From Geobacter sulfurreducens PCA (GTDB lineage: Bacteria; Desulfobacterota; Desulfuromonadia; Geobacterales; Geobacteraceae): a stretch of DNA of 32,000 bases. Where the stretch lies: contig NC_002939.5 in NCBI RefSeq assembly GCF_000007985.2, positions 1,560,001 to 1,592,000 of the forward strand, read 5' to 3'. Below the pieces are notes generated by a model that saw nothing but the letters and a program-made list of their open reading frames with translations, was not told the DNA's origin and made no database searches. Both the position numbers and the translations under genes were made by a program. Of the stretch, positions 4,294 to 26,689 are shown one piece after another; the first letter of the stretch is position 1; every line of letters starts with the position of its first letter.

Positions 4294-7200
4294 TCACCCT
4301 TCCAGGATCTTGAGGACAACCATGGAGATGTCGTCGTCGATGACGGTACCGCCGCTGAATGATTCAACCTCGGCGAGGATGACGTCGATGATTTCGTCGC
4401 TCCTTCTGTCGCTCGTGGCTGACAGGAGCGTACAGAGCCTTGAGGACCCGAAAAATTCCCCATCAGGATTCCGAGCCTCCGTAATGCCGTCGGTGTAGAG
4501 AAGAACCACATCGCCGGGCTGGAGCTCAATCTGCTTCTCTTCGAATTCAACCCTGCGCTTCACTCCCAAGATGAGCCCCTCGGCGTCGAGCTCCATGCAT
4601 GCGGTTTGACCGTTGCGGAAAATCAGCGGAGGGTTGTGCCCGGCATTCGCGTAGGAAAGCAGACGACGACGGGTGTCGTAGCGGATGTAGAACATGGTGA
4701 TGAAGAGTTCCGCGCCTGAGAGATCGTCGTGAAGAAGCTCGTTGAGGGTTTCGAGGATTTCGCCGACGCTGCGGTCGGAACGCGCCTGGGCGCGCAGGAC
4801 GCTGCGGGTTTCAGCCATGATGAGGGCTGCGCCGACGCTGTGACCGGAGACGTCGGCAATGACCATGTCCGCCCCGGACTCGCCATGCTGGAAATAGTCG
4901 TAATAGTCTCCTCCAACGTGGGTGGCCGGCTTGCACCGGCCCGCCACGGCCATGCCGGGGGAGAGTCGGCGGGGCCGAGGGGAGCAGCGAGAGCTGGATC
5001 TGCTTGGCGATTTCCATCTCCTTGACTACGCGCGCATTCTCTAGAAGGATGCGCTCCTTCTCTTCCCGCTCGCGCTCCTTCGCTTCCATTTCCGTGACGA
5101 TTTTTACCGCCTGGGCCAACTGGCCGGCAAGGCTCTCCAGAAGGTTCAGGAAGGGCTCGTTGAACAGGCCGACGATGGTTCTGGAGAAGACGGACAGGAT
5201 CCCGAAGGGGGGTTCCCCTTTGCGGGAGATGGGAATGTGGGCAAAGGACTTGATCCCTTCCTTCTGCATCAGTTCCCTGGTAAGCGGCTTGGTCATGTAC
5301 TGGGTGTCGTTCACGAACTGAAGCCGATTGCTCAGAAACGCCTCGCCGATGTAGGTTTCGATCTCCGGCTCCCAATCTTTTCCGGCGATGCCGGCAATCC
5401 CCTTGCCGCTGTAGCTTCTGACCCGCAACACTCCCTTTTCGTCCACCAGCCGAATGACGGCAAGATCGAGCTTGAACTCCTTCAAGAGCAGGTTGAGGAG
5501 ATCATCCATGATGATCTGCAGGTCAAGGGTCCGGTTCATGATCTCGGAGGCCCGGAGTCGTACATAGAGCGCTTCGCGGCTTTCGGCCAGGGATGCCTGG
5601 ACGGTGCTGAATATGTCGTAGACCGGTTCCATGCGCGAACCGAGATCCGACAGATAGCTCTCCACGATGGCCCCCGCTGCGGCTGCCCCCACGGAGCCGG
5701 CGAGGGTCTTTTCCGTGAACCGTTTCAGCTTGGGCAGCTCGAACTCCGAGACCCCTCCCTGGGCGTCGATCTCGCGCGAGCCCACGTACTCGGTGATTGC
5801 CGCGTGGGCCTGCTGGTCGCCGATGAACTTTGACATGAGATTAACGAACTGCATGATGGTCACGGGCTTCGACATCCGCTTGGTTTCCCAGGGGACGCCG
5901 TTTTTCCGTGCCGTGAATACGTCGACGAACTTTCGCACCTGCTCTTTTTCCCGGTCCTTCTGGCGAAGGACGATGGACAGGGTCAGGTATCCCCCGACAT
6001 TGAAAAGGAGGCTCCAGAAGAGGGAATGGGTCCAGATGTCGAACCCTGCGAGGCCGAAGAGCTCCGTCGGCTTGAGCAGGGTTATGCCGAAGGGGCCCTG
6101 GTCGAGAATTGCGCGGGGAAGCCATCCGGATATGATGATGGACGGCAGGAGAAGGGTATAGAACCAGAAAATGAAGCCAAGGACGATGCCGGTCAGGGCG
6201 CCGGATTTGTTCCCCCTGCGCCAGTAGAGTCCTCCCAGGAGAGCGGGGCCGAACTGTGCCGCGGCAGCGAAGGAAATGAGCCCCATGTTCACGAGCATGA
6301 ACGTTTCGCCAACTACGGTCTGATAGATATAGCCGAGAAAAACCACGACAAAGATGCAGAGTCGCTTCAGGTTGATGAGCATGGTGGGAAACCAGGGGCG
6401 AGGCTTGAGTTTCACCACGATGGGCATCAGGAGGTGGTTGAGGAACATGGTGGAGATGGCGACCGACTCCACGATGATCATGCCTGCGGTTGCCGAAAAA
6501 CCTCCCAGAAAGGCCAGGAGGGCCAGCCAGGAGTGGCCGGTCTGGAGAGGAAGGGTAAGTACGAAGAAGTCGGCGCCCAGGACGCCGCCGGTCTGGAGTA
6601 TCCCCCCCAGCGCGATGGGCATCACAAAGAGGTTTATCAGGAACATGTAGGCGGGGAAGAGCCACATGGCCTTCTTGATATGCTCCTCGTCCGAGTTCTC
6701 GATGACCATTACGTGGAACTGGCGGGGGAGGAGCATGATGGCACCCATGGAAAGGTAGAGCGTCGTGAACCAGCGAGCGTGGGAGGTTGTGGAGGAGCCC
6801 CCAATGGTGGTCAGATTGTCCAGCAGGTGGCCCTGGGCATCGATGCGGGCGAAGATGTCGCCGAAACCGTTGAACATTCCGTAGGTCACGTAGATGCCCA
6901 CAGCCATGAAGGCCACGAGCTTGACGATGGACTCTACGGCAATTGCGGCGACCAGTCCCTCGTGGCGTTCGGTGGAAACCAGCTTGCGGGCGCCGAAGAT
7001 GACGCTGAAGGCGCTCAGGATCACCGCGGCAAAAAAGTTGGTGTGGAGCGAAACCGGGTAGTTGGTGTGCAGAAGCGGGAGTTGGACGTAAGGGTAGCCG
7101 CAGATGATGTCGAAGGTGGTTGAGACCGCCTTGAGCTGGAGTGCTATATAGGGCATGATCCCTACGATGGCGATGACCGTAACCACAGCGCCGAGCCACT

Positions 7201-7543
7201 GGGATTTCCCATAGCGGGAGCTGATGAAGTCGGCGATGGACGTGATGTTGTTTTCCTTGCAGATCCGCACGATCTTGCGCAGAAAAAACCACCAGGAAAA
7301 AGCGACCAGCGTGGGCCCCAGGTAGACGAGCAGGAAGTCGATTCCCGTGGTCGCGGCCTTGCCGACGCTGCCGTAGAACGTCCAGGACGTGTGATAGACG
7401 GCAATGGAAAGGGCGTAGACCAGAGGATTGGCAATAACGCTCCGGCCCTCTTCCTTTTTCTTGTCGGCGTAGTACGCCACCGTGAAGAGGAAGACAATGT
7501 AGAGCAGCGATATGCCGACCACCAGTTCGATGCTGAGGATCAA
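4294..7543 (-). pseudogene. Sodium:solute-symporter-like (SLC5/SSS) membrane domain fused to GAF and PP2C/SpoIIE phosphatase (RsbU-like); reading frame broken by a 1-nt indel
   Basis: ORF 4811..7543 carries the SSS membrane domain, a linker, a GAF-like region and a coiled coil ending '...AKQIQLSLLPSAPPTLP', followed by 48 aa of Arg-rich out-of-frame tail. ORF 4294..4953 is a complete SpoIIE/PP2C domain beginning 'MAVAGRCKPATHVGGDYYDY'. Removing one base of the G5 run at 4957-4961 joins them as 'LLPSAPPTLPGMAVAGR...'. Confidence 0.8.
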
Positions 7544-9647: not shown

Positions 9648-11369
9648 ATGAATACGACAACCGTTGCAGCGCTCTTGACCCTTTTTCTTGTTATTCCCGG
9701 CTGCGCTACCAGTGGAGCGGTAGGAGCGCTGCCCGTCAATGAGGCGAGTTTCAAGCCGACTGTTGACATTGCCGGGTCGCGCGCCCTGTATATTTTCGCC
9801 AGGGCGCGGCTGCAGCTGCTGGAAGGGGACGTGGACGGAGCCCTGACGCTGCTCAACGGTGCCATCGAAGCAGATCCGGGCTCAGCATATCTCCACACTG
9901 CGGTTGCTGAGATCTACATGAAGACGGGGCGGGCCGAAGACGCACTCAAGGCGTGTGAAAATGCCATCAGGCTCGATCCTTCGTACCGTCAGGCCCGACT
10001 GCTGGCCGGTGCCATTCTGGCCAGTCTCAAGCGCGATAGAGATGCGGTTCCCCATCTGGAAAAGGCTATCGAGCTCGATCCGTCTCGGGAAGAGGCCTAC
10101 ATTCATCTGGCCGTATCCTACCTGAAGCTGTTCGAGTACGAGAAGGCGGTAAATACGCTCAAGTCCCTCGTTAAGGTCAAGCCCGAATCATCCCTCGGTT
10201 ACTATTACCTGGGCAAGGCTTACGACCAGATGAAGCTCCAGAAGGAGGCCGCCAACTATTACAAGAAGGCCATTGAACTGAAGCCGGACTTTGAGCAGGC
10301 CATCATCGAATTGGGGATCGTCCAGGAGGGAATGGGGCTCCACGATGAGGCCGTCGCTACCTATAAGAGCCTGCTGGATATCAATCCTTACAATCTGAAC
10401 GTCCTGCAGCATCTGGTTCAGATTTACCTGCAGCAGCAGGAGTATGATGAGGCGCTTCCCCTCCTCAAGGGACTCAAGGAAAAGGGGATCGGCGGGTTGG
10501 AGACGTCACGCAAGATCGGTCTCATCTACATGGAGAGCGAGCGGTACGACGAGGCAATCGCCGAATTCCGGGACATTCTGGAGCGTGAGCCCAATGCCCT
10601 GCAAGTCCGCTTCTATCTGGCGACCGCCTTCGAGGAAAAGGAAGAGTACGACCGGGCGCTCGAAGAGTTCGGCCGGATACCTCCCGGCTCCTTCAACTAT
10701 TTCGAGGCCGTCGGGCACATGGCGTTCATCCACAAGGATATGGGGAATCCCGAAAAGGGGATTGCCGTCCTGAAGGATGCCATCGCCGCATACCCGAGCC
10801 ATCTGGAGCTTCACCTCTATCTGGCTGGTCTGTACGAGTCTCTTGATCACTACACCGAGGGCTTGGCGGTGCTGAAGGCGGTGGAAGGGGATTTCGGGGG
10901 CGATCCGCGCCTGCACTTCCGCATGGGCACCCTTTACGACAAGATGGGGAACAAGGATGAGTCCATCGCCCGGATGAAAAAGGTGCTGACCATCGCGCCG
11001 GATGATGCCCAGGCGCTGAACTACCTGGGGTATACCTATGCGGAGCTCGGCATAAAATTGGACGAGGCGTTGCAGTATCTCAGAAAGGCGGTTGAACTCC
11101 GCCCCAACGATGGTTTCATCCTCGACAGCCTCGGCTGGGTCTATTTCAAGCTGAAGCGTTATGATGAAGCCGTGCCGCTCCTGGAACGAGCGACAAAGCT
11201 TGTGGACGACGATCTCACCATTATGGAGCATCTGGCCGACGCCTATGCGGCCCGGCGCGAGCATCGCAAGGCCCTTGAACTCTACCGGAAGATCCTGGAA
11301 ACGGAGCCCGGCCGCAAGGATATCATCGAGAAGAAGCGCAAGGTCAGGGGGGAGAGCCAGGAAAAATGA
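9648..11369 (+). CDS. TPR-repeat lipoprotein
   Basis: ATG 9648 gives 'MNTTTVAALLTLFLVIPGC' (lipobox), followed by many 34-aa TPR repeats (A..Y...G....A...Y.KAIELDP pattern). The TTG 9486 extension in the ORF track is not protein-like. Confidence 0.85.
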   Translation: MNTTTVAALLTLFLVIPGCATSGAVGALPVNEASFKPTVDIAGSRALYIFARARLQLLEGDVDGALTLLNGAIEADPGSAYLHTAVAEIYMKTGRAEDALKACENAIRLDPSYRQARLLAGAILASLKRDRDAVPHLEKAIELDPSREEAYIHLAVSYLKLFEYEKAVNTLKSLVKVKPESSLGYYYLGKAYDQMKLQKEAANYYKKAIELKPDFEQAIIELGIVQEGMGLHDEAVATYKSLLDINPYNLNVLQHLVQIYLQQQEYDEALPLLKGLKEKGIGGLETSRKIGLIYMESERYDEAIAEFRDILEREPNALQVRFYLATAFEEKEEYDRALEEFGRIPPGSFNYFEAVGHMAFIHKDMGNPEKGIAVLKDAIAAYPSHLELHLYLAGLYESLDHYTEGLAVLKAVEGDFGGDPRLHFRMGTLYDKMGNKDESIARMKKVLTIAPDDAQALNYLGYTYAELGIKLDEALQYLRKAVELRPNDGFILDSLGWVYFKLKRYDEAVPLLERATKLVDDDLTIMEHLADAYAARREHRKALELYRKILETEPGRKDIIEKKRKVRGESQEK

Positions 11370-12982
11370 CGTTCCGGTGGATCGGCTGCCTTCTTGCCCT
11401 GCTGTTGATCGTATCGTGCAGCGGCGAAGACCGCGCGAGAGCCCCTGCCGTGCGCGGACCGGGTACGCCCGCTTACGGTGACGCCATCGTGGTGGGTACC
11501 ATTGGCGAACCGTCGAACTTGCTTCCTCTGCTGGCGTCCGACTCGGCATCCCACGAGGTGGCGGGCAATATCTTCAACGGCCTTGTCCGTTACGACAAGA
11601 ACCTGAACCTGGAGGGGGAACTGGCCGAGTCGTGGCAGGTTTCTCCCGACGGCCTCACCATCACTTTCCATCTCCGCAAGGGGGTGAAATGGCACGACGG
11701 CGTGGAGTTCACCTCCCGTGACGTGCTCTACACCTACCGGGTGACGGTGGATCCGAAGACCCCCACTGCGTACGCCGAGGATTTCAAGCAGGTCAAGACC
11801 GCCGAGGCACCCGATCCCTACACCTTTCGCGTCACCTATGCCAAGCCGTTCGCCCCTGCGTTGGCCTCCTGGGGGATGGGAATTCTCCCGGCTCACCTGC
11901 TGGAAGGGAAGGACATCACCAAGAGTGAACTCTCCCGTCGTCCCGTCGGAACCGGGCCCTACCGGTTCAAGGAATGGGTCGCCGGTCAGAAGATCGTCCT
12001 CGAATCCAATCACGACTACTACGAGGGCCGCCCGTACATTGACCGTTACATCTACCGGATCATCCCCGACAATTCCACCATGTACCTGGAACTCAAGGCA
12101 GGCGGCGTGGACCTGATGGGACTCTCGCCGGTCCAGTATGCCCGGCAGACGGATACCCCCGAGTTTCGTTCCCGCTTCGCCAAGTACCGCTATCCGGCCT
12201 CGGCCTACACCTACCTGGGGTACAATCTGAAAAATCCGCTTTTTGCCGATCGTCGCGTGCGCCAGGCCATTGCCCATGCCCTCAGCAAGGACGAGATCAT
12301 TCACGGTGTGCTCCTGGGGCTCGGCCAGGTGGCGGTGGGCCCCTTCAAGCCGGGGACCTGGGCCTACAATCCCACGGTGCGCGACCCGGGCTATGACCCG
12401 GTGCGGGCGAGGCAACTGCTTGCCGAGGCGGGGTGGCGCGCAACCGGGCCCGACGGCATCCTGATGAAGGACGGCAAGCCGCTGAGCTTCACCATTCTGA
12501 CGAACCAGGGCAATGACCAGCGGCTCAAGACCGCCCAGATCATCCAGCGCCGGCTGCGCAAGGTCGGGATCGACGTGAAGATCCGGGTGCTGGAGTGGGC
12601 GTCTCTCCTGACCAATTTCATCGACAAGCGGAATTTCGATGCCCTCATCATGGGGTGGACGATCCCCCAGGATCCCGATCTCTTCGATGTCTGGCATTCG
12701 AGCAAGACCGGTCCCAAGGAACTGAATTTCGTCGGCTTCAAAAACGATGAGGTGGACCGCCTGATCGAGGAGGGGCGCCGCACTTTCGACCAGGAGAAGC
12801 GCAGGCGCTGCTACTGGCGCATCCAGGAGATTCTGGCCGAGGAGCAGCCCTACACCTTTTTGTACGTCCCCGATGCCCTGCCGGCGGTGAGCGCCCGGTT
12901 CAGGGGAATCGAGCCCGCGCCGGCCGGCATCATGTACAACTTCATCCGTTGGTACGTGCCGAAAGAAGAGCAGGTGCACTAA
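11366..12982 (+). CDS. ABC transporter substrate-binding protein, family 5 (Opp/Dpp/Nik-type)
   Basis: Lipoprotein signal 'LLLIVSC', and length and sequence pattern typical of SBP_bac_5. Its start overlaps the TPR gene stop (ATGA). Confidence 0.9.
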
Positions 12983-12983
12983 C

Positions 12984-13964
12984 ATGGCCGCCTACATCTT
13001 CAAGCGACTCCTGGCAATGATCCCGTTGCTGTTCGGGATCACCCTCATTACCTTCGTGGTGATCCGGCTCGCCCCCGGGGAGCCGGTGGAGGCGATGACC
13101 GCCATGAGCCCCAAGATCACCGCCGAAACCCGCGAGCGGCTCCGGGAGTTCTACGGACTCGACAAGCCGCTCCATGAGCAGTACGTTTCCTGGGTCGGCC
13201 GCATCGTTAAGCTCGACTTCGGCCGCTCCTTCGCCCCGGACAACCGGCCGGTGACCGACAAGATCGCCGAGAGAATACCGGTGACCCTCTCCCTGAACAT
13301 CATTGCGCTGATCCTTGAATTCGGTCTCGCCATCCCCATCGGTATCTTTGCCGCCACACACCGGGACACGATCTATGACAAGGGAATAACCCTCTTCGTC
13401 TTTCTCGGGTTCGCCGTGCCGACCTTCTGGCTGGCGCTGCTGCTGATGTATTTTTTCGGGGTGAAACTGGGGTGGCTTCCCATTTCGGGGCTCCACTCCC
13501 TGGGGAGCGAGAACCTTTCACCCCTGGCATGGTTCGCGGATATGGTAAAGCACTTGGTGCTGCCCGTGTTCGTGGCCACTTTCGGCAGTCTGGCGGGGCT
13601 GTCGCGCTATATGCGCTCGAACATGCTGGAGGTGATCCGCCAGGACTATATCACCACGGCCCGGGCCAAGGGGTTGTCCGAGCGTGTGGTCATTTACCGC
13701 CACGCCCTGCGCAACGCACTGCTGCCCGTCATCACGCTTCTGGGTTTTTCCCTGCCGGGGCTCATCGGAGGGAGTGTCATCTTCGAGACGATTTTCGCCA
13801 TCCCGGGCATGGGACAGCTCTTCTACCAAGGGGTCATGGCCCGCGACTATCCGCTTGTCATGGGGATTCTCGTCATCGGCGCGTTCCTTACGCTCATCGG
13901 TAACCTGCTGGCCGATGTCTGCTATGCCATGGCCGATCCGCGCATCCGGCACGGAAGGGGGTAG
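12984..13964 (+). CDS. ABC transporter permease (DppB/OppB-like)
   Basis: '[32 protein letters not shown]' is the canonical OppB/DppB N-terminus, and the EAA-loop region '[12 protein letters not shown]' is present. Confidence 0.92.
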
Positions 13965-13967
13965 GGG

Positions 13968-14816
13968 ATGGCCTACCGCGACAGCTGGTTCCATACGGTC
14001 TTCTGGAAACGTTTCCGGCGCAACCGTTTCGCCCTGGCCGGCGGCGTGGTTGTGGTGGTGCTCTTTGCCATCTCGTTCCTGGCTCCCTACATCGCCCCCT
14101 GGGACCCGGACGCCATCGACGCCTACCGCGTTCTGCTCCCGCCGTCGGCCGAACACTGGTTCGGGACCGACGAACTGGGGCGGGACGTCTTTACCCGTGT
14201 CATCTACGGAGCCAGGATCTCGCTCAAGGTGGGATTCGTATCAGTAGGCATCGCCGTGGTTATCGGCACGGTGCTCGGTCTCGTCTCCGGATTCTACGGC
14301 GGGCTTGTCGATACGATTATCATGCGGTTCGTGGACATCATGCTCTGCTTCCCCACGTTTTTTCTCATCCTCGCGGTGATCGCCTTTCTGGAGCCGTCTA
14401 TCTGGTACATTATGGCCATCATCGGCCTCACGGGCTGGATGGGAGTGGCCCGGCTCGTGCGGGCCGAGGTCCTGTCGCTGCGGGAGCGTGATTTCGTGCT
14501 GGCTGCCCGCGCCCTCGGCGCATCGGATGTGCGGATACTGCTCCGCCATGTCCTGCCAAACGCCGTATCGCCGGTCCTGGTGTCCGCCACCCTTGGTGTG
14601 GCCGGCGCAATTCTCACCGAATCGGCTCTGTCTTTTCTCGGCATCGGGGTCCAGCCCCCCACGCCGAGCTGGGGTAACATCCTCACCTCCGGCAAGGACT
14701 ACATCGAGTTCGCCTGGTGGCTTTCGCTGTTCCCCGGCGGAGCCATCCTGGTGACCGTTCTGGCCTACAATCTGTTGGGCGAGGGAATCAGGGACGCCCT
14801 TGACCCGCGGGTCTGA
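13968..14816 (+). CDS. ABC transporter permease (DppC/OppC-like)
   Basis: 'HWFGTDELGRDVFTRVIYGARISL' and 'FVLAARALGAS' are hallmarks of OppC/DppC. Confidence 0.92.
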   Translation: MAYRDSWFHTVFWKRFRRNRFALAGGVVVVVLFAISFLAPYIAPWDPDAIDAYRVLLPPSAEHWFGTDELGRDVFTRVIYGARISLKVGFVSVGIAVVIGTVLGLVSGFYGGLVDTIIMRFVDIMLCFPTFFLILAVIAFLEPSIWYIMAIIGLTGWMGVARLVRAEVLSLRERDFVLAARALGASDVRILLRHVLPNAVSPVLVSATLGVAGAILTESALSFLGIGVQPPTPSWGNILTSGKDYIEFAWWLSLFPGGAILVTVLAYNLLGEGIRDALDPRV

Positions 14817-19412: not shown

Positions 19413-21377
19413 TCAGCTCTTCAATGCTTCCTGTACTCGTGCGATCAGTTGATCAGGCTTGACCGGTTTGGCGATGAAATTGATATCTTCGGCCAGGAAA
19501 CCCTTGCTGCCGATGATGTCCTTGGTGTAGCCGCTGATGAAGAGGGCTTTGATAGCTGGTTGGATTCGTTTCATTTCCTCGAAGGCAACCTGGCCGTTCT
19601 TGCCGGGCATCACCACGTCGAGCAGGACGAGATCGATCTTGTTGACGGACTCGGCAAATTTTTTGACCGCGTCGTTTCCATCGGCTGCTTCAATTACCTC
19701 GTAACCGTTACGTTCGAGCACGTGACGGGAAAGCTTTCTGACCGCTTTGTCGTCCTCCGCCAGCAGGACGGTTTCCCTGTTCCCCTTTGCCACGATCGGT
19801 GGTGCTTCCTCTTCATGTCTCGCCGTCAATGCCACGATCGGAAGATAGATGCGGAAGGTGGTGCCGGCGCCCGGTTCGGAATCAACGGTGACGAACCCTT
19901 CATGTTGTCGCACGATGCCATATACCATCGACAGGCCGAGACCAGTGCCTTTTCCAACCTCCTTTGTTGTGAAGAAGGGGTCGAAAATCCGCTCTTTTGT
20001 CTCCTGGTCCATGCCAAGGCCCGTGTCGCTGACGGTCAGAACGGCATAACGTCCCGGCCGGCACTGTTCCAGCGAACTGAAGGAATTTTCGTTCAGAACC
20101 GTCGCATCGGTCGTCAGCGTGAGAGTCCCTCCTGACGGCATGGCATCGCGGGCATTGGTTACGAGATTCATGAGTATCTGGTCTATTTGTCCTGAATCCA
20201 CATGGCAGACGAGAGGTTCGTTGAAGAGAGATACCTTGAACTCCACATCCTCGCTCACGAGGCGGGCCAGAAGTTTCTCGATACTCTGGATGATCCCGTT
20301 CAAATCAGTGGGGAGGGGCGTGATAACCTGTTTGCGGCCAAAGGCCAGCAGCCGTTTTACCAGCGTCGTGGCGCGATCGGCAGCGTTAAGTATCTGGTCC
20401 ACATAAATCTGGTAGGGGTTATCTTTGTTCAGACTGCGCTGCAGGAGCGTGCCGAAGCCGACGATAGCCGTAAGGATATTGTTGAAGTCGTGGGCCACCC
20501 CTCCTGCAAGGGTACCGATTGCTTCCATCTTCTGGGCGTGACGCAGCTCTTCGGCCAGCAGTTCTTTCTCCGCTTCGCGCTTTTTAAGCGTCTCCGCCAT
20601 ATGGTTGAAGGCATTGGCCAGACGTCCGATTTCGTGATTGCGCTCGACCTTTACCGGGACGAAAGCGCCACCCTGCTCCAATGCCTTAATGCCGACAGTG
20701 AGTCGGTCGAGCGGATTGGTGATCCGGCGTACCACAAGATACGTGAGAATGGTGCTCAATACCAGGAATCCGCCGGTAAGGGTGCTGCAGATGAGCAAAA
20801 GCGTGTCGAGACGTCGCTTGAGGGGGTGTTTGTCCACAATGATACGGGCATACCCCAGGATCTTTTCCTTGCCCTGCGCCTCGTGTCCTAGGATCAGCGC
20901 ATCGGTGCTCTGGAACGGAGCGATGGAGACGATCGGCGCCCAGAACTCGAAAAGCTCGGCTTCCTCGAAGGTGTGGGGGACTCTACTTGAGCGTGTATCG
21001 CTGAAATGCACACTCCAGTTGGGTATTTTCCTTTCCGGAGTCTTGAGCATCTTTTCATGGGCCTGCTCCCTGATGGGGGTGCCGGCTGCTGAAATGACCG
21101 AGACGAAAAGTACCCCATCATGCTGCAGAATGCCCTCCACCGGGTCTTTGAGTAGTTCGCCGTTCTCCGCAAAGACGCCCAGCCGGGCGTTGTGGGCCAG
21201 GAGGCGTGCGAGAATCTGACCCTCATGGGTGACGTTTTCCCGAAGTATGCGTCGCTGCTGCTGGTAAAACAGAACGGTGAACGATATGGATATAACGGCG
21301 ATCGTTGATGCAAAGAGGAGGAAAAACCTGAGACCAAGACTGTCGTGCCGTTGTTTTAGCGTGTCGTGCATGCCCAT
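19413..21377 (-). CDS. Hybrid sensor histidine kinase / response regulator (periplasmic sensor, HAMP, HisKA, HATPase_c, REC)
   Basis: Two TM segments flank a sensor region of about 170 aa. HAMP 'RRITNPLDRL', H-box 'GGVAHDFNNILT', N/G boxes 'LVTNARDAM' and 'GTGLGLSMV', and a C-terminal receiver 'VLLAEDD...DLVLLDVVMPG'. Confidence 0.9.
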   Translation of the reverse strand: MGMHDTLKQRHDSLGLRFFLLFASTIAVISISFTVLFYQQQRRILRENVTHEGQILARLLAHNARLGVFAENGELLKDPVEGILQHDGVLFVSVISAAGTPIREQAHEKMLKTPERKIPNWSVHFSDTRSSRVPHTFEEAELFEFWAPIVSIAPFQSTDALILGHEAQGKEKILGYARIIVDKHPLKRRLDTLLLICSTLTGGFLVLSTILTYLVVRRITNPLDRLTVGIKALEQGGAFVPVKVERNHEIGRLANAFNHMAETLKKREAEKELLAEELRHAQKMEAIGTLAGGVAHDFNNILTAIVGFGTLLQRSLNKDNPYQIYVDQILNAADRATTLVKRLLAFGRKQVITPLPTDLNGIIQSIEKLLARLVSEDVEFKVSLFNEPLVCHVDSGQIDQILMNLVTNARDAMPSGGTLTLTTDATVLNENSFSSLEQCRPGRYAVLTVSDTGLGMDQETKERIFDPFFTTKEVGKGTGLGLSMVYGIVRQHEGFVTVDSEPGAGTTFRIYLPIVALTARHEEEAPPIVAKGNRETVLLAEDDKAVRKLSRHVLERNGYEVIEAADGNDAVKKFAESVNKIDLVLLDVVMPGKNGQVAFEEMKRIQPAIKALFISGYTKDIIGSKGFLAEDINFIAKPVKPDQLIARVQEALKS

Positions 21378-21385
21378 GGTCTCTC

Positions 21386-22279
21386 CTATCGAATTACCCT
21401 GGCCCTTCCCAGGGCCTCTTCGGATAGTGTCAGACCGAGTTTACGCGCAACTTTCGCATTAACCGTCATGACCATGCTGCGGGGTTCGACTCGCTGGACC
21501 TGCTCCACCGGAGCACCCGACAGTATTCGCCTGATCAGGTCCCCGCCTTGCCTCCCCAGGTCGTAGGGGTCGATGTCGAGCGCCATGATGGCGCCCATCT
21601 GCACGTACTTGTCTGAAAACGTCAGAATGGGAATTCTGTTGGTGAGTGAGAAAAGGAGGAGAAATTCTATGCTTTCGGGAGTCACCACCGTGGTGTCGGG
21701 AAGCATCCAGATAGCGTCCACTTCCCCCTTCAGTCCTTCCGCCACCGGGACCACATCACGGGCAGAGCGGAGTTCACGGGCGACCGGCTCGATCCCCATC
21801 GAGCGGGCCGCGGCCTGGGCCTTGCGCGCAAGCACGCCGGACCGGGAGGGATTGTAGGGAATTCCTATTTTCCTCAGTCGCGGCATGAGGCTCTGCAGTG
21901 CCGCCAGTTGCCGTTCGGGCGGGACGTTCATGCTGACGCCGGTCAGGTTGTCGCCGGCGGTGAGGGTGTTCTGGGGATCGAGAACCATCAGGTAGACGAT
22001 GGGGGTGTCCTTGACCCGCTTTACCCTGGTCAGGGCCTCTGCCCCGATCGCCAGAATCACGTCCGGGCGCTCGTCGCGCACCATTCGCGCCACATCGACC
22101 CCTTCCATTTCCGAGATAACGACCCTTTTGATGGTCCCGCTCACAACGCTTCTCACCCCCCGGAGAGCCTCTTCATAGGGGGCTACTCTCACGCTCTGAA
22201 GCACGAAAACCTTCTGGGCCGCATTACAGGGCTCGGTCAAAAGGATGATTGCGAGAATGAGAAGAATTATTCTGGTCAT
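21386..22279 (-). CDS. Periplasmic ABC_sub_bind (PF04392/COG2984-like) substrate-binding protein with no cognate permease or ATPase nearby
   Basis: Signal peptide 'MTRIILLILAIILLTEPCNA' and a type-I periplasmic binding fold pattern. Lies 8 nt upstream of the kinase gene on the same strand. Confidence 0.75.
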   Translation of the reverse strand: MTRIILLILAIILLTEPCNAAQKVFVLQSVRVAPYEEALRGVRSVVSGTIKRVVISEMEGVDVARMVRDERPDVILAIGAEALTRVKRVKDTPIVYLMVLDPQNTLTAGDNLTGVSMNVPPERQLAALQSLMPRLRKIGIPYNPSRSGVLARKAQAAARSMGIEPVARELRSARDVVPVAEGLKGEVDAIWMLPDTTVVTPESIEFLLLFSLTNRIPILTFSDKYVQMGAIMALDIDPYDLGRQGGDLIRRILSGAPVEQVQRVEPRSMVMTVNAKVARKLGLTLSEEALGRARVIR

Positions 22280-22798
22280 GTGGTTCTAGTAGACAAAAAG
22301 TAATGATTCTGTTAGGTTGAGCGACGCAGAGCAATATGGTGTATACTGTGACTTGCCCAGCACCCAGTGCTTCGATAACGTGTTGGCCATCTGTATGGGG
22401 CCTCCGGGGCAAACGTCAAAGACGCAGCAGTTCAAAGGCTGCGTGTGTCATTTGTTTGACAATGTTTTTGCGCAGATTCAATGCGCCAGACTCTCATTTG
22501 ATACCGATATCTGTGAGGTCTTAAGAGGTATACCCCCTGGCTGAACAGTCCGCATGGAGTTATTTTGCCATTTCAGTGCCATTTTGCGTAAAAAATGCAG
22601 TAATCGATCAATTTTGTACCACATGGTGAGGTGATAAGCCAGTAATTTTGAATTGTTATTAATCTTATGATTTCTGCTGATGACAGCGGATACGACGGCA
22701 GATGGCCGCCGAGCCTGGATCGGAATTTTTTTTGCATAGCTGAAACCGCAAAGCGCGATACCAGGTAACGCATATCCCGTTCCAGGGCTGGGGGGCGG

Positions 22799-24721
22799 AT
22801 GGACATTCGACTTATTGAGAACAGAAGACGAAACCTTACTCCCGTGATCGGATTGCTCGGCCTCTCGGTACTGCTTGCCCCGACAGGCTTTAGAGGGTAC
22901 GCCTGGGCCCAGGCCGACGAGGAGATGAGAGTCCTCGAGATGTTTTACGAGGACAAGGAACTGGTTGTGACCCCCACCCGGGACCCCAAGCCCGTCTCTC
23001 AGGTGGCCGAAAACATTACCGTCATTACCGCCAAAGAAATCAGGAACCTGAATGCCCATACCCTGGCAGACGTTCTGGTCACCATAACCGGTGTCCAGCA
23101 AGACTGGCGGGGTGGTCCCGGCAGTCTCGCCTTCCCCGGTATCCAGGGGTCGAACCCCAATCAGGTACTCGTTCTGATCGATGGGGTCTCGCAGACCAGT
23201 ACCTCTTCAAACTTTGCCGATGTGGGCGCTATCCCGGTGCAGAATATCGAGCGGGTCGAGATCATCAAAGGACCAGCCTCCACCTCCTGGGGGTCGTCCC
23301 TTGGCGGCATCATCAACGTCATCACCAAGTCCCCCGAGGAGAACAGGGCCGCGGCCGGCATGGTGTCGGCGTCTCTGGGTGAGCGGTTCACCGGCGACTA
23401 CCGGGGCGAACTCACCGGCACGGTGGGATCGTTCGGCTATTATCTCTCGGGCGGCAAGCTCCACTCCGACGGACTCCTTCCCCACAACAGCGTTGATACC
23501 GACCGGGCATATCTGAAGCTGACCCACCAGTTGCCCGACGGCGGAGATCTACGCTTCTCTCTCGGCTACAGCGCCGGCGACCGCGGCGACCAAATGGACC
23601 CCGTTGCTCGAACGTCCTATGACAATACGTTCGACAATCTGTTGACGACGCTCTCAATCTCGCTCCCCCTTACCGAGCGGATCGACTGGGACCTTTCGCT
23701 CCGCTCCCAGTGGCTGGAATATGACCAGTTTCGCAATGGTCTCGACACCGGACTCGTTGATGCCTCGCTGCTGGATGACCGTTCCTTCGGAGCCACAACC
23801 AAGCTTGTCTGGCGTACCGGTGACCACAGCCTGACTGTCGGGGCGGAGTTTGACAGGGGTGATTTCAGGCTGGAACAGGAGAGCTCTGGAATTGGACGGT
23901 CTTCTGTCCGTTCACATATTGCAAAATCGGCAATCTTTGCCAACGACACCATTGTGTTTGGGCCTTTGACCATAACCCCGGGCATCCGTTTTGATCACAC
24001 GACCACCAATGGGGACTTTCTGAGCCCCAGTCTTGGGGTGACCTGGGGCATTGGTGAACATACGGTGCTACGTGGCGCATTGGCGAGGGGGTTCACGGTC
24101 CCTCCCGTTATTTACACTGTCGGTGATGGCTTTGCCCTGGCCCCTAACCCCGACCTTAAGATGGAAAAGGTTCTTTCCTGGCAGGCAGGCTTCGAGACAT
24201 CGCTCCTGCGCTACCTGTGGCTCAAGTCTACTTTTTTTCTGCATGATGTTTCTGATGCTGTTGTTGCTACCATTTTGTCAGATGGGCAGTTTCGGTATGA
24301 AAATCGAGAAAAGCAGCGCCGACAGGGTATGGAGATCGAGGTCAAGACCATTCCTTTTATGTACACTACGCTGGGAGCCGGTTATACCTTTGTGGATTCG
24401 AAAGATCGGAACACGCATCAGCGAATACCCTCGGCGGCTCGGCAGACGGTCAATACAACCATACAGTTCGATGACTTAAAGGGTACAAGGGCGAACCTTG
24501 TGGGGCGCTACATCTGGTGGAATGCTCCTGATTTCATCCAAGGTAGCTATACCTCAATGGTCTGGGATCTGAATGTTGCCCGAAATATCTATCGTGATGA
24601 ACGTTACAGTGTGGAGTTGTTCCTAGCTGGCCGCAATCTGTTTAATGGTTCACAGTATGTTGACGCCACCCTCAAAAACCCCTGCCGCTGGTTCGAGGGA
24701 GGGATACGGTTCGATTTTTGA
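22799..24721 (+). CDS. TonB-dependent outer-membrane receptor
   Basis: Signal peptide ending 'AWA/QADE'. Plug motifs 'ELVVTPTR', 'ITVITAKEI' and 'IERVEIIKGPASTSWG', then beta-barrel repeats and a C-terminal 'GGIRFDF' with terminal Phe. Confidence 0.9.
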   Translation: MDIRLIENRRRNLTPVIGLLGLSVLLAPTGFRGYAWAQADEEMRVLEMFYEDKELVVTPTRDPKPVSQVAENITVITAKEIRNLNAHTLADVLVTITGVQQDWRGGPGSLAFPGIQGSNPNQVLVLIDGVSQTSTSSNFADVGAIPVQNIERVEIIKGPASTSWGSSLGGIINVITKSPEENRAAAGMVSASLGERFTGDYRGELTGTVGSFGYYLSGGKLHSDGLLPHNSVDTDRAYLKLTHQLPDGGDLRFSLGYSAGDRGDQMDPVARTSYDNTFDNLLTTLSISLPLTERIDWDLSLRSQWLEYDQFRNGLDTGLVDASLLDDRSFGATTKLVWRTGDHSLTVGAEFDRGDFRLEQESSGIGRSSVRSHIAKSAIFANDTIVFGPLTITPGIRFDHTTTNGDFLSPSLGVTWGIGEHTVLRGALARGFTVPPVIYTVGDGFALAPNPDLKMEKVLSWQAGFETSLLRYLWLKSTFFLHDVSDAVVATILSDGQFRYENREKQRRQGMEIEVKTIPFMYTTLGAGYTFVDSKDRNTHQRIPSAARQTVNTTIQFDDLKGTRANLVGRYIWWNAPDFIQGSYTSMVWDLNVARNIYRDERYSVELFLAGRNLFNGSQYVDATLKNPCRWFEGGIRFDF

Positions 24722-24849
24722 TAATGTGTGGTAATTTAGGGAGTGCTACTCGTATGTTATTGAAAATTATTTGTTGACATGCTGGTGTGTTTACAATTAC
24801 TTTTGCTCAAAGCGCCGTGCTACTATCCAGGAGGGAGGAGTCAACAGAC

Positions 24850-24951
24850 ATGAAAAAGTCATCTCGCATTGCCGTCCTCAACGCAGGATCAGTCAAGAAC
24901 CCGAACCAACCCGGATATATTTGTATCATCATCTTCGGGAGAACAGTGTAG
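24850..24951 (+). CDS. 33-aa candidate RiPP precursor peptide (MKKSSRIAVLNAGSVKNPNQPGYICIIIFGRTV)
   Basis: Below the ORF-track size cutoff. Strong SD AGGAGGGAGGAG (24829-24840) lies 9 nt before ATG 24850, with stop TAG at 24949-24951. A terminator hairpin and then an RRE-rSAM/SPASM gene follow on the same strand. Confidence 0.6.
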   Translation: MKKSSRIAVLNAGSVKNPNQPGYICIIIFGRTV

Positions 24952-24977
24952 TTGAGAGTCAAGCCTTGATTCACTGG

Positions 24978-25005
24978 AAAAAGGGGAGAGCAATCTCCCC
25001 TTTTT
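24978..25005 (+). terminator. Intrinsic terminator/attenuator between peptide ORF and radical SAM gene
   Basis: AAAAAGGGGAGA (24978-24989), GCAA tetraloop, TCTCCCCTTTTT (24994-25005), then a further CTTTT. Confidence 0.85.
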
Positions 25006-25069
25006 CTTTTGGTGAACCCGTGCCGTCCCACAGCATTGTTGGCGGCGAAATTGCCCAATGAGGTGATTC

Positions 25070-26401
25070 ATGGTCTTATCGCGCCATGTGATTATTACTC
25101 CCTGCCCGGACCGGCCGGGCACGTCCATCCTGTTTTCCGCCAAGCGAGGAGCGCTCATCCTGGTGGATGATGAGTTGCTTGCTGCCATCGGTGCCGGAGG
25201 GCTCGACGCCGACGAGGAGCAGACCCTGGCCGAACTGGGGTTTCTCGTGCCCGATCACGACAGTGAGCAGCAGGAAATGTGCTCCTTTGTTGATGAAAGC
25301 AACCGTGCGAGCCGATCGTTTGCCGCCCTGATCATCCTGAACCTGAGCTGCAACCTGGCCTGCTCTTACTGTTTCGAGGGAAACAGGAGGGGCGCGCATT
25401 TCATGGACGACGACACGGCGGATCGCCTGGTGGCCTATCTCGTTTCAGGGCCCGTTGCCGAGGGGAGATCGCTGTCGCTCAGGTTCTACGGCGGCGAACC
25501 GCTCCTGAGCGTCCCCACCATACGGCGTATTGCCCGTCCCTTGAAGAAAGTGATGGATGCCCGAGGCCTGTCCTTCAGTTTCTCCCTGACCACCAACGGA
25601 ACGCTCCTGACCCGGGAACTGGTAGAGGAACTCATCCCCTTGGGTCTTGTCGGTGCAACGGTTACTCTCGACGGTCCTCCGGATATCCATGATGCGGCCC
25701 GGCCGTTTGTGGGAGGGGAGGGGAGTTTTTCCGTCATTTTCGCCAACCTCAAGGCCGTTGCGGATCTCATAGCCCTGGAGATCGGTGGCAACTTCACTCC
25801 CGAAACCTACCGGGAATATCCGCGCCTCTTCGATCTGCTCGTGGCAGAGGGCCTCGGTCCGGAGCGGCTCGCTCTCGTTCGGTTCAACGCGGTCATGTCG
25901 GCGGGAGAGAATCGGGCACTCCCCGAGTTTACGGGGGGGTGCGCGTCGGTGAATGAACCCTGGCTCAAGGATGCCACCCTTTTTATCCGTGAGGAGCTGC
26001 TGCGCCGAGGATTCCCCGCACCGGGGCTTTCACCTCATTACTGCGCCATTGAGGCTGAGGACTCACTCATTGTGAACCATGATGGGACCTTCTACCGCTG
26101 TCCCGCCTTTATCGGCATTGAAGGGCTTGCGGCGGGCAGTCTTGATGACGGCCTGTCTGATCATGCCGCCAGCCATGGCCTTGGGGCCTGGAAGAACGAG
26201 GAATGCCTGAGCTGCGCCTATCTGCCCCTCTGCTTCGGTGGCTGTCGCTATTATGGTTACCTGGAGCATGGCAGGATCGACCGCGTGTCCTGTGGCCGAG
26301 ATTTGTTCGATGCTATTGTGGGGCCGTTTCTCGCCCTTGAGGTGAAATACCGCCACCAGCCGGGCGAGGATGCCTCCGATACGGACGGCGACTCGGATTG
26401 A
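25070..26401 (+). CDS. Radical SAM / SPASM-domain peptide-modifying enzyme with N-terminal RRE (PqqD-like) domain
   Basis: rSAM motif 'CNLACSYC' (CxxxCxxC) and 'GGEPLL'. SPASM motifs 'C...DGTFYRC' (Gx4C) and 'CLSCAYLPLCFGGC' (Cx2Cx5Cx3C) plus a trailing Cys. The ~80-aa N-terminal 'ILFSAKRGALILVDDELLAAI...LAELGFLV' resembles a peptide-recognition element. GAGGTGA SD lies before ATG 25070. Confidence 0.88.
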   Translation: MVLSRHVIITPCPDRPGTSILFSAKRGALILVDDELLAAIGAGGLDADEEQTLAELGFLVPDHDSEQQEMCSFVDESNRASRSFAALIILNLSCNLACSYCFEGNRRGAHFMDDDTADRLVAYLVSGPVAEGRSLSLRFYGGEPLLSVPTIRRIARPLKKVMDARGLSFSFSLTTNGTLLTRELVEELIPLGLVGATVTLDGPPDIHDAARPFVGGEGSFSVIFANLKAVADLIALEIGGNFTPETYREYPRLFDLLVAEGLGPERLALVRFNAVMSAGENRALPEFTGGCASVNEPWLKDATLFIREELLRRGFPAPGLSPHYCAIEAEDSLIVNHDGTFYRCPAFIGIEGLAAGSLDDGLSDHAASHGLGAWKNEECLSCAYLPLCFGGCRYYGYLEHGRIDRVSCGRDLFDAIVGPFLALEVKYRHQPGEDASDTDGDSD

Positions 26402-26461: not shown

Positions 26462-26689
26462 TCACTTGGTCGGGCGCGGCCGGTTTGTTTCGTCCGGGCC
26501 GACGATGCGGATGCTGATCCTGCGGATTAGGTGTTCGATTTGTGCGAGCTTTTCCTCGTATTGCTGGAGAAAGTAGGCGCGTTTGTCTCCCTGATGGAAT
26601 GTCGTGCCGTCCCGCAGCATGGCAATTCTGGTTTTGGCAACTTCTTTCATGATTTCGAGAACTTCCCGTGCGTCGGCCATGGGCGTCAC
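26462..26689 (-). CDS. Small hypothetical protein (helical)
   Basis: 75-aa ORF 15 nt downstream of the PHP gene on the same strand. No recognisable domain. The start is ambiguous: GTG 26689 or ATG 26680. Confidence 0.45.
   Translation of the reverse strand: MTPMADAREVLEIMKEVAKTRIAMLRDGTTFHQGDKRAYFLQQYEEKLAQIEHLIRRISIRIVGPDETNRPRPTK

Follow-up and report, generated by a model that had tools for sequence, protein, structure and literature searches.

Several maturases of peptides that are made on the ribosome and altered after translation (RiPPs) are radical S-adenosylmethionine (rSAM) enzymes that form thioethers, among them CteB of the SCIFF system, PapB of the ranthipeptides and QhpD. SbtM, from Geobacter-type organisms, converts Cys or Sec to a thio(seleno)oxazole (PMC9204691). 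The geopeptides are a further family, known in silico only from the curated models TIGR04280 (maturase) and TIGR04229 (precursor). Our searches found no literature on geopeptide, TIGR04280 or TIGR04229, or on an rSAM RiPP accompanied by a TonB-dependent receptor, a binding protein and a kinase, and the link between the family and these three proteins appeared in no text searched. Here, we analysed a 32,000-nucleotide stretch of Geobacter sulfurreducens PCA (NC_002939.5, positions 1,560,001 to 1,592,000), hereafter the window, in which a 33-codon open reading frame (ORF) precedes the gene of an rSAM/SPASM enzyme. G. sulfurreducens is a genetically tractable model organism whose genome names a geopeptide maturase and lists no geopeptide. 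Comparison with related loci indicates that the short ORF is a genuine, previously unannotated gene for the peptide substrate of this maturase. We propose that the locus is the G. sulfurreducens copy of the geopeptide system, with the chemistry and receptor circuit set out below, and give this reading as a whole a probability of roughly 0.55.

The precursor and maturase genes

We compared the window with its closest relatives, loci L081 (enzyme 96% identical) and L084 (88%), and with a further pair, L085 and L086 (58%). The features of the precursor–maturase stretch are as follows.

24774–24797, plus strand: promoter-like pair, TTGACA (24774–24779) and TACAAT (24792–24797), separated by 12 nt; role uncertain, spacing illegal for sigma-70
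24829–24840, plus strand: Shine-Dalgarno sequence AGGAGGGAGGAG, with a 9-nt spacer to the ATG at 24850; unchanged in L081 and L084
24850–24951, plus strand: predicted precursor peptide gene, 33 residues plus stop, MKKSSRIAVLNAGSVKNPNQPGYICIIIFGRTV; from translation, selection on codons and family build
24976–25010, plus strand: intrinsic terminator between precursor and maturase genes; stem GGGGAGA/TCTCCCC, loop GCAA, U-run and upstream A-run
25060–25066, plus strand: Shine-Dalgarno sequence GAGGTGA of the maturase gene, read from the sequence; conserved in L081 and L084
25070–26401, plus strand: geopeptide radical SAM maturase, 443 residues, ATG at 25070; by its match to TIGR04280

A preliminary description of the window, made from its letters, had reported the two hexamers, both Shine-Dalgarno sequences, the 33-codon ORF, an ORF masking it, the hairpin and the Cys motifs of the enzyme, and all of these were found again at the same positions. 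The masking ORF has 96 codons, starts with TTG and overlaps the short ORF in another frame (24771–25061).

The maturase belongs to the geopeptide family

The enzyme matched the NCBIfam model TIGR04280, "geopeptide radical SAM maturase", with 677.2 bits against a cutoff of 400, its residues 1–428 aligning with positions 1–428 of the 428 in the model. The G. sulfurreducens entries AAR34820.1 and ADI84285.1 have the same sequence; NCBI calls them geopeptide radical SAM maturase, and the names given there to related proteins agree with the family. The families that follow scored 90–140 bits (CefB, TIGR04463, PapB, nif11, Clo7bot, QhpD, CcpM and the SCIFF maturase), with the CefB, PapB, nif11 and QhpD models at some 115–140 bits. 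The characterised maturase families PapB, SCIFF/CteB, CcpM, QhpD and RumMC gave 63–129 bits against cutoffs of 340–720, and none of these cutoffs was reached. The placement of the enzyme among RiPP maturases rather than with anSME, as first suggested, held: the anSME model TIGR03942 scored 62.9 bits against a cutoff of 349, compared with 677 for the enzyme's own family. The accompanying view, that the peptide fits none of the families and that the cassette is uncharacterised, was overstated, as both TIGR04280 and TIGR04229 are already curated and the enzyme already has its name. Our finding is therefore less novel than was first claimed.

The rSAM core carries the CxxxCxxC motif (C94/C98/C101). 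The SPASM region comprises C325-x13-G339-x4-C344, C379-x2-C382-x5-C388-x3-C392 and C408, plus C291, and matched the SPASM model TIGR04085 with 48.5 bits (cutoff 27). All of the rSAM and SPASM motif residues, C291 included, are invariant in a 29-sequence alignment of the family.

By sequence profile, the closest solved structure is CteB (2e-32). The AlphaFold model of the maturase (predicted local distance difference test, pLDDT, 88) also found CteB as its best match in the Protein Data Bank (PDB), with a template modelling (TM) score of 0.67–0.71 over 439–466 columns, end to end. Close fold neighbours are anSME, ChlB, TigE and SuiB, and PqqE is among the fold matches, far down the list. The N-terminal domain (residues 1–80) is modelled with pLDDT above 89 in a β3-α3 layout. 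When this domain was searched in isolation, its best PDB matches were the RiPP recognition element (RRE) proteins TbiB1, TigE and CteB, all weak (E 0.06–0.4, TM 0.37–0.54). On the model, it is plausible that the N-terminal domain is an RRE.

The 33-codon ORF is under selection as a peptide

The peptide is composed of the leader motif IAVLNAG, a Pro-containing linker, a single Cys25 and the tail IIIFGRTV. The frame is retained in L081 and L084, where changes are mostly synonymous or conservative. In the comparison with these two loci, the ratio of non-synonymous to synonymous change (pN/pS) was 0.07–0.19 in the 33-codon frame, against 0.8–3.3 in the two other frames. L085 and L086 have 41-residue ORFs at the same position, ending in ...ILVLDEGNAKSPYPKYCMVPLARLYA and ...IFVLDEGNAKSPHPKAYCTGFWVRYY, respectively.

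More distant relatives were recovered by an alignment-based scan; a single-protein scan of genome contigs had given none. About 75 related loci, from Geobacteraceae, Desulfuromonadales, Desulfobulbales, Nitrospirota and others, have a small ORF at the same place, before the orthologous enzyme gene and of the same build, which consists of a strong Shine-Dalgarno sequence (GGAGG-type before nearly all 75 peptides), a leader h-x-(V/I)-L-x-x-G, a linker, a Cys motif and a tail of 8–11 residues. Among these, some 70 distant loci (ten from genomes of Nitrospirota, Desulfuromonadales, Desulfobulbales and Geotalea, the remainder metagenomic) encode h-x-(V/I)-L-(D/E/K)-x-G, 7–19 variable residues often with G-P, Cys-Cys and the 8–11-residue tail. 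A pattern of this build, written from the distant peptides, matched 65 of the 70 and, within the window, selected this reading frame only out of 314 small ORFs. IAVLNAG fits h-x-(V/I)-L-x-x-G, a family feature that we infer from the 70 relatives. The peptides of L085 and L086 bridge the two groups and rank first against a profile of the Cys-Cys peptides, and the tails IFGRTV, PLARLYA and FWVRYY are comparable to PFRYV, PLRS and FWTYYR. The 22-position curated model TIGR04229, "geopeptide", has a cutoff of 30 bits and gave 40.5 bits for the Geotalea relative, whose NCBI entry (WP_012648279.1) is itself named "geopeptide".

The exact 33-residue sequence is absent from a collection of 15 billion proteins and unannotated in all the sources that we searched; it has thus been called by no pipeline. 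The preliminary description had taken the short ORF for a precursor gene, and the peptide-level conservation beside orthologous enzymes bears this out. We are confident that the locus encodes a real precursor together with a geopeptide-family maturase. Locating the substrate gene makes an rSAM RiPP family known in silico directly testable.

A terminator separates the two genes in most loci of the family

Between the precursor and maturase genes, the hairpin GGGGAGA-GCAA-TCTCCCC (24983–25000) is followed by TTTTTCTTTT and was called by a terminator scan. A 79-nt stretch containing it folds with −30 kcal/mol (z = −3.3), and none of 200 shuffled sequences was as stable. The terminator is fully conserved in L081 and L084, and L085 and L086 have a similar one. 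A hairpin with a T-run separates the peptide and enzyme genes in 49 of the 75 family loci; among 75 controls (equal-length stretches within the enzyme gene), one has such a site. Thus, the arrangement of precursor, terminator and rSAM/SPASM maturase with a putative RRE, first remarked on in this window, is a family-wide trait. No separate promoter for the maturase gene was seen in a promoter scan. The terminator would give an excess of precursor mRNA, and read-through would supply the enzyme.

Convergent with the maturase gene lies a 75-residue ORF without a Pfam match (26462–26689, minus strand), which is called as a 72-residue gene in the close relatives L081, L082 and L084. It is absent from L085 and L086 and therefore stands outside the module described below.

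Cores keep Cys, in a single copy in the G. sulfurreducens clade

Adjacent Cys-Cys is present in 68 of the 70 aligned distant peptides. Among these, L136 departs from it with CTC, and CVC is found in the Lys-rich peptide of L130, which stands apart from the set. The clade of G. sulfurreducens, G. anodireducens and G. soli, like the 58% relatives, has a single Cys, in the form YIC, YMC, YC or AYC. The window peptide has YIC, with no adjacent Cys-Cys in its core, and L081, L084, L085 and L086 likewise have one Cys. The single-Cys core had been reported from the window and is indeed present there, but it is untypical of the family, being a clade-specific departure from a near-universal Cys-Cys. 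A single Cys is thus the one class of residue that every core retains. The cores are otherwise highly variable. Many tails are rich in aromatic residues, yet in the subgroup with polar tails the aromatics are not conserved and Cys is. This natural one-Cys variant narrows which residue the chemistry needs.

Two further forms of precursor were seen. In L010, L097, L105, L130, L135 and L138 the Cys core is separated from an N-terminal RI(T/S)VKKK motif by long repeats rich in Lys, Ala and Thr (KKKATKKK...), and the precursors reach 50–105 residues. In L120 (6582–6909) and L127 (21–276) a single maturase gene is preceded by two candidate precursor ORFs, and those of L127 are near-identical copies.

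A receptor, a binding protein and a kinase accompany the maturase

Upstream of the precursor gene, the window encodes three proteins of the cell envelope.

19413–21377, minus strand: hybrid sensor histidine kinase; transmembrane segment 13–39, periplasmic domain of about 150 residues, transmembrane segment 190–216, then HAMP, HisKA, HATPase and receiver domains (Pfam, hydropathy)
21386–22279, minus strand: periplasmic binding protein of PF04392 (ABC_sub_bind) with signal peptide; Pfam 122 bits, signal-like N-terminus, not accompanied by an ABC permease or ATPase
22799–24721, plus strand: TonB-dependent outer-membrane receptor, 640 residues; plug and barrel, BtuB-sized, without a signalling extension (Pfam, NCBIfam)

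The receptor scored best against siderophore, B12 and heme receptor models, the closest solved structures of the binding protein are 3LKV and 3LFT, and the kinase core scored against the TorS and LuxQ models.

We surveyed the neighbourhoods of 92 loci by tblastn with the window proteins and by unbiased clustering of every ORF within 7 kb, and the two agreed. No more than four protein families recur, namely the rSAM enzyme (86 loci), the TonB-dependent receptor (71), the histidine kinase (59) and the PF04392 binding protein (56). No other family was found in more than five of the 92 loci, and no exporter, peptidase, ABC permease or ATPase, or dependent enzyme recurs. Where at least 5 kb was available on both flanks, the receptor was present in every locus (36/36, on either strand and either side) and all three partners in 31 of the 36. 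The module genes occur in at least six orders and orientations, with the receptor, binding-protein and kinase genes often abutting or overlapping, and even close relatives have different genes flanking the module. The enzyme, receptor and binding protein give correlated distance matrices (Mantel r 0.40–0.69, p = 0.001). In some loci, a non-hybrid kinase is accompanied by an NtrC-type sigma-54 activator.

Trichlorobacter ammonificans (L169, OW150024.1, 973–14878) carries two full modules next to each other, neither of which shares its receptor, binding protein or kinase with the other. Their peptides, MKKQRLSVLAEGTCPFLGGVDAVCCYAAVMSLR and MSEELVVLSEGEETVQGCCKGAQSAKL, differ in type, one having a hydrophobic and the other a polar tail, and in each module the nearest relatives of enzyme, receptor and binding protein come from loci with the same core type.

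The preliminary description had guessed that the TonB receptor, binding protein and kinase belong with the peptide, and comparative genomics strongly supports the guess. From this gene-level evidence, the three proteins are likely to be a functional part of the system. Their partnership with the maturase is strict, survives rearrangement and shows co-divergence with peptide and enzyme, and this provides a concrete hypothesis, open to falsification, about the function of the product.

An ABC importer of Opp/Dpp type (an SBP_bac_5 binding protein and two permeases) is encoded 8–13 kb upstream (11366–14816, plus strand). We rejected the importer as a part of the module, as it is not conserved with the module in other loci. 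A 910-residue ORF (4811–7543, minus strand) combines a sodium:solute symporter domain with a GAF domain.

Candidate regulatory elements

The promoter-like hexamers before the precursor gene recur at the same 12-nt spacing upstream of the peptide in L081, L084, L085 and L086. The consensus TTGAC(A/T)-N12-TA(C/G)A(A/C)T is retained even where the enzyme identity is only 58%. The 12-nt spacing had already cast doubt on the promoter call, with good reason, as the promoter scan does not call the pair. Instead of forming a −35/−10 pair, the conserved sequence may serve as a regulator site that overlaps a promoter.

One element was found between the divergent binding-protein and receptor genes.

22566–22581, minus strand: tentative sigma-54-type −24/−12 element TGGCACTGAAATGGCA, which precedes the start of the binding-protein gene by 287 nt

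The window has no other match to this motif (0.05 expected by chance), and the same element recurs at the equivalent position in L085 and L086. The version of the module in the window encodes no enhancer-binding protein. We rejected a sigma-54 promoter upstream of the peptide genes, for which the strict motif gave none in 67 and a loose motif was as frequent in controls.

Another motif, TAGCA(G/A)A-N~14-TTGTC(T/C)A, lies between divergent receptor and peptide genes in 14 loci (L004, L007, L106, L110, L121, L124, L136, L139, L140, L141, L151, L154, L155 and L169). On the opposite strand it resembles a promoter of the receptor/binding-protein/kinase operon, with a −35 T(G/A)GACA and an extended −10 TGCTAGA.

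The best Fur-box match (14/19) falls within the beginning of the coding sequence for the binding protein, and the remaining matches do not rise above background; thus, no link to iron can be claimed. A search of the 32 kb with Rfam gave neither a riboswitch nor any other RNA family.

Proposed chemistry and role

In the reading that we favour, the leader strand I-A-V-L-N-A-G would dock on the N-terminal RRE-like domain, and the rSAM/SPASM enzyme would abstract a hydrogen from a core residue and join that residue to the sulfur of the conserved Cys. The product would be an intramolecular thioether ring, of sactionine or ranthionine type, in the C-terminal 10–12 residues. A thioether is the most likely single outcome, because the nearest families and the nearest structure are those of thioether formers (CteB, PapB, QhpD) and Cys is the sole constant core residue; judged by analogy, its odds fall a little short of even. 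The mature peptide, a fragment of it or a metal complex would then reach the outside, and the cognate TonB receptor would take the product back across the outer membrane. In the periplasm, the binding protein would bind it and report to the kinase in the manner of LuxP–LuxQ or TorT–TorS, so that the product would act as a self-produced signal or a scavenged ligand. We tentatively favour, at just under an even chance, the view that the peptide product is itself what the receptor, binding protein and kinase recognise.

Several observations weigh against this reading. The curated model TIGR04229 gave no match to the window peptide even at E ≤ 10, and the peptides of most other relatives are also under its cutoff. 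Our own profile of 70 Cys-Cys peptides gave the window peptide a non-significant 3.7 bits, which rose to 5.3 bits after L085 and L086 were added (rank 6 of 319 overall). We do not claim homology of the window peptide to the Cys-Cys family on the basis of these scores (3.7–5.3 bits); as no profile score is significant, the case for homology rests on position, build and intermediates. The PqqD/RRE-like character first ascribed to the N-terminal domain stands on the fold layout and on the alignment of the full model to RRE-bearing CteB, whereas Pfam PqqD and a PDB sequence search with the domain gave no match and its structural scores are weak. No acidic acceptor residue is conserved in the cores, unlike the substrates of PapB or QhpD. 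CteB has one auxiliary cluster with an open site; the eight conserved Cys of the window enzyme could fully ligate both auxiliary clusters, so ligation of the substrate Cys as in CteB is not assured. The promoter scan of the window found no sigma-70 promoter with legal spacing on the plus strand. With no exporter, leader peptidase or inner-membrane importer conserved, release and processing are unexplained. Finally, co-divergence can arise from co-inheritance alone.

The rival that survives best concerns the chemistry. It holds that no thioether is made and that Cys is converted to formylglycine or to a thio-oxazole-type heterocycle, or else that tail aromatics are joined by a C–C or C–O link or residues are epimerised. 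All eight Cys of the SPASM region are invariant, as in anSME, whose clusters are fully ligated, and anSME, ChlB, TigE and SuiB are close in fold. The abundance of aromatic residues in many tails would suit a link between them, and SbtM provides a precedent for thio(seleno)oxazole formation (PMC9204691). Against this, the anSME model scores far under its cutoff (63 bits against 349), the nearest families by score are maturases of Cys-rich peptides, and it is Cys, not the aromatics, that the polar-tail subgroup keeps. We consider such a departure from thioether chemistry rather unlikely, though it is the strongest of the competing accounts.

Taken further, the thioether and receptor reading suggests that geopeptides are self-made, rSAM-cross-linked ligands of a private trans-envelope circuit, each with its own co-evolving receptor, binding protein and kinase. 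We hold this generalisation to be somewhat improbable as it stands. If true, it would describe a new kind of TonB-gated peptide signalling, or signalling plus scavenging, widespread in anaerobic Desulfuromonadia, Desulfobulbia and Nitrospirota, and the single-Cys form of G. sulfurreducens would show that one Cys suffices for modification. It hints that Gram-negative anaerobes may sense a peptide through a TonB-dependent gate.

Alternatively, the modified Cys peptide could be a metallophore, a secreted chelator whose metal complex is imported and sensed in the way of methanobactin and MbnT or of siderophores. A dedicated TonB-dependent receptor is the most constant partner (all 36 long loci), it scores best to siderophore, B12 and heme receptor models, and the conserved core feature is Cys or Cys-Cys, all of which would suit a chelator. 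However, neither a Fur box nor a riboswitch was found near the module and no inner-membrane metal importer is conserved with it. The lone thiol of the G. sulfurreducens clade would be a poor chelator by itself, and a Cys sulfur held in a thioether would be less available to metal. We therefore regard a metallophore as unlikely.

Less likely again is a purely regulatory link, in which the receptor, binding protein and kinase respond to some unrelated external compound and do no more than control the peptide–rSAM operon, whose product would act within the cell, perhaps as a redox cofactor made from the peptide in the way of PQQ or mycofactocin. The absence of a conserved exporter or protease is shared with the pqq and mft clusters, an NtrC-type regulator stands beside the kinase in some loci, and SPASM enzymes include the cofactor makers PqqE and MftC, PqqE being a fold match here, if a distant one. 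Yet no dependent dehydrogenase or other cofactor-using enzyme recurs among the loci, the peptide genes have no sigma-54 promoter upstream, and the cores are highly variable, unlike cofactor precursors. The twin modules of T. ammonificans keep private receptors, binding proteins and kinases that track the type of peptide core, which is hard to reconcile with an unrelated ligand.

Finally, that the short ORF is no gene, and serves only as a 5′ leader or leader-peptide attenuator regulating the rSAM gene, would fit its lack of annotation in any source, the terminator directly 3′ of it and the non-significant profile scores, but is very improbable given the codon-level purifying selection specific to the 24850–24951 frame, the strong conserved Shine-Dalgarno sequence, a peptide build shared by about 75 loci from several phyla and relatives that NCBI already names geopeptide, such as WP_012648279.1.

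Comparison with known systems

We compared the proposed system with those described for its parts. SbtM is an rSAM peptide maturase of Geobacter-type organisms (PMC9204691) but belongs to a different family. CteB and its SCIFF substrate (PDB 5WGG, 5WHY) share the three-domain layout and a Cys-containing substrate with the window system and provide the closest structure. The enzymes are about 21% identical, however, the window enzyme scores 91 bits on the SCIFF maturase model (cutoff 425), and SCIFF peptides have six Cys compared with one in the window peptide. SCIFF genes are not known to have a TonB receptor, binding protein or kinase in their neighbourhood. PapB and QhpD are among the best-scoring characterised families (129 and 114 bits) and form bridges from Cys sulfur to carbon, although both scores are far under the cutoffs (340 and 453) and their substrates use Asp/Glu acceptors at fixed spacing.

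For the envelope proteins, methanobactin with MbnT and PQQ with PqqU provide cases of a peptide-derived product beside, or used with, a dedicated TonB-dependent receptor. The geopeptide module differs in having no MbnB/C or Pqq enzymes and no inner-membrane importer, and its receptor is not a member of PqqU (43 bits against a cutoff of 1200). LuxP–LuxQ and TorT–TorS resemble it in the putative pairing of a binding protein with a kinase, encoded next to it, that has a periplasmic domain between two transmembrane segments, without an ABC permease or ATPase. Here, by contrast, the binding protein is of the PF04392 fold family and an outer-membrane TonB receptor is obligatory.

The geopeptide system itself is the closest. 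The window agrees with it in a maturase that matches over its full length and above cutoff, a same-strand precursor gene directly upstream, the leader motif and the length of the tail, and differs in a precursor that fails TIGR04229 and has one Cys instead of Cys-Cys. What is new relative to that family is a single-Cys, unannotated precursor in a model organism, together with evidence that receptor, binding protein and kinase form a strictly conserved module.

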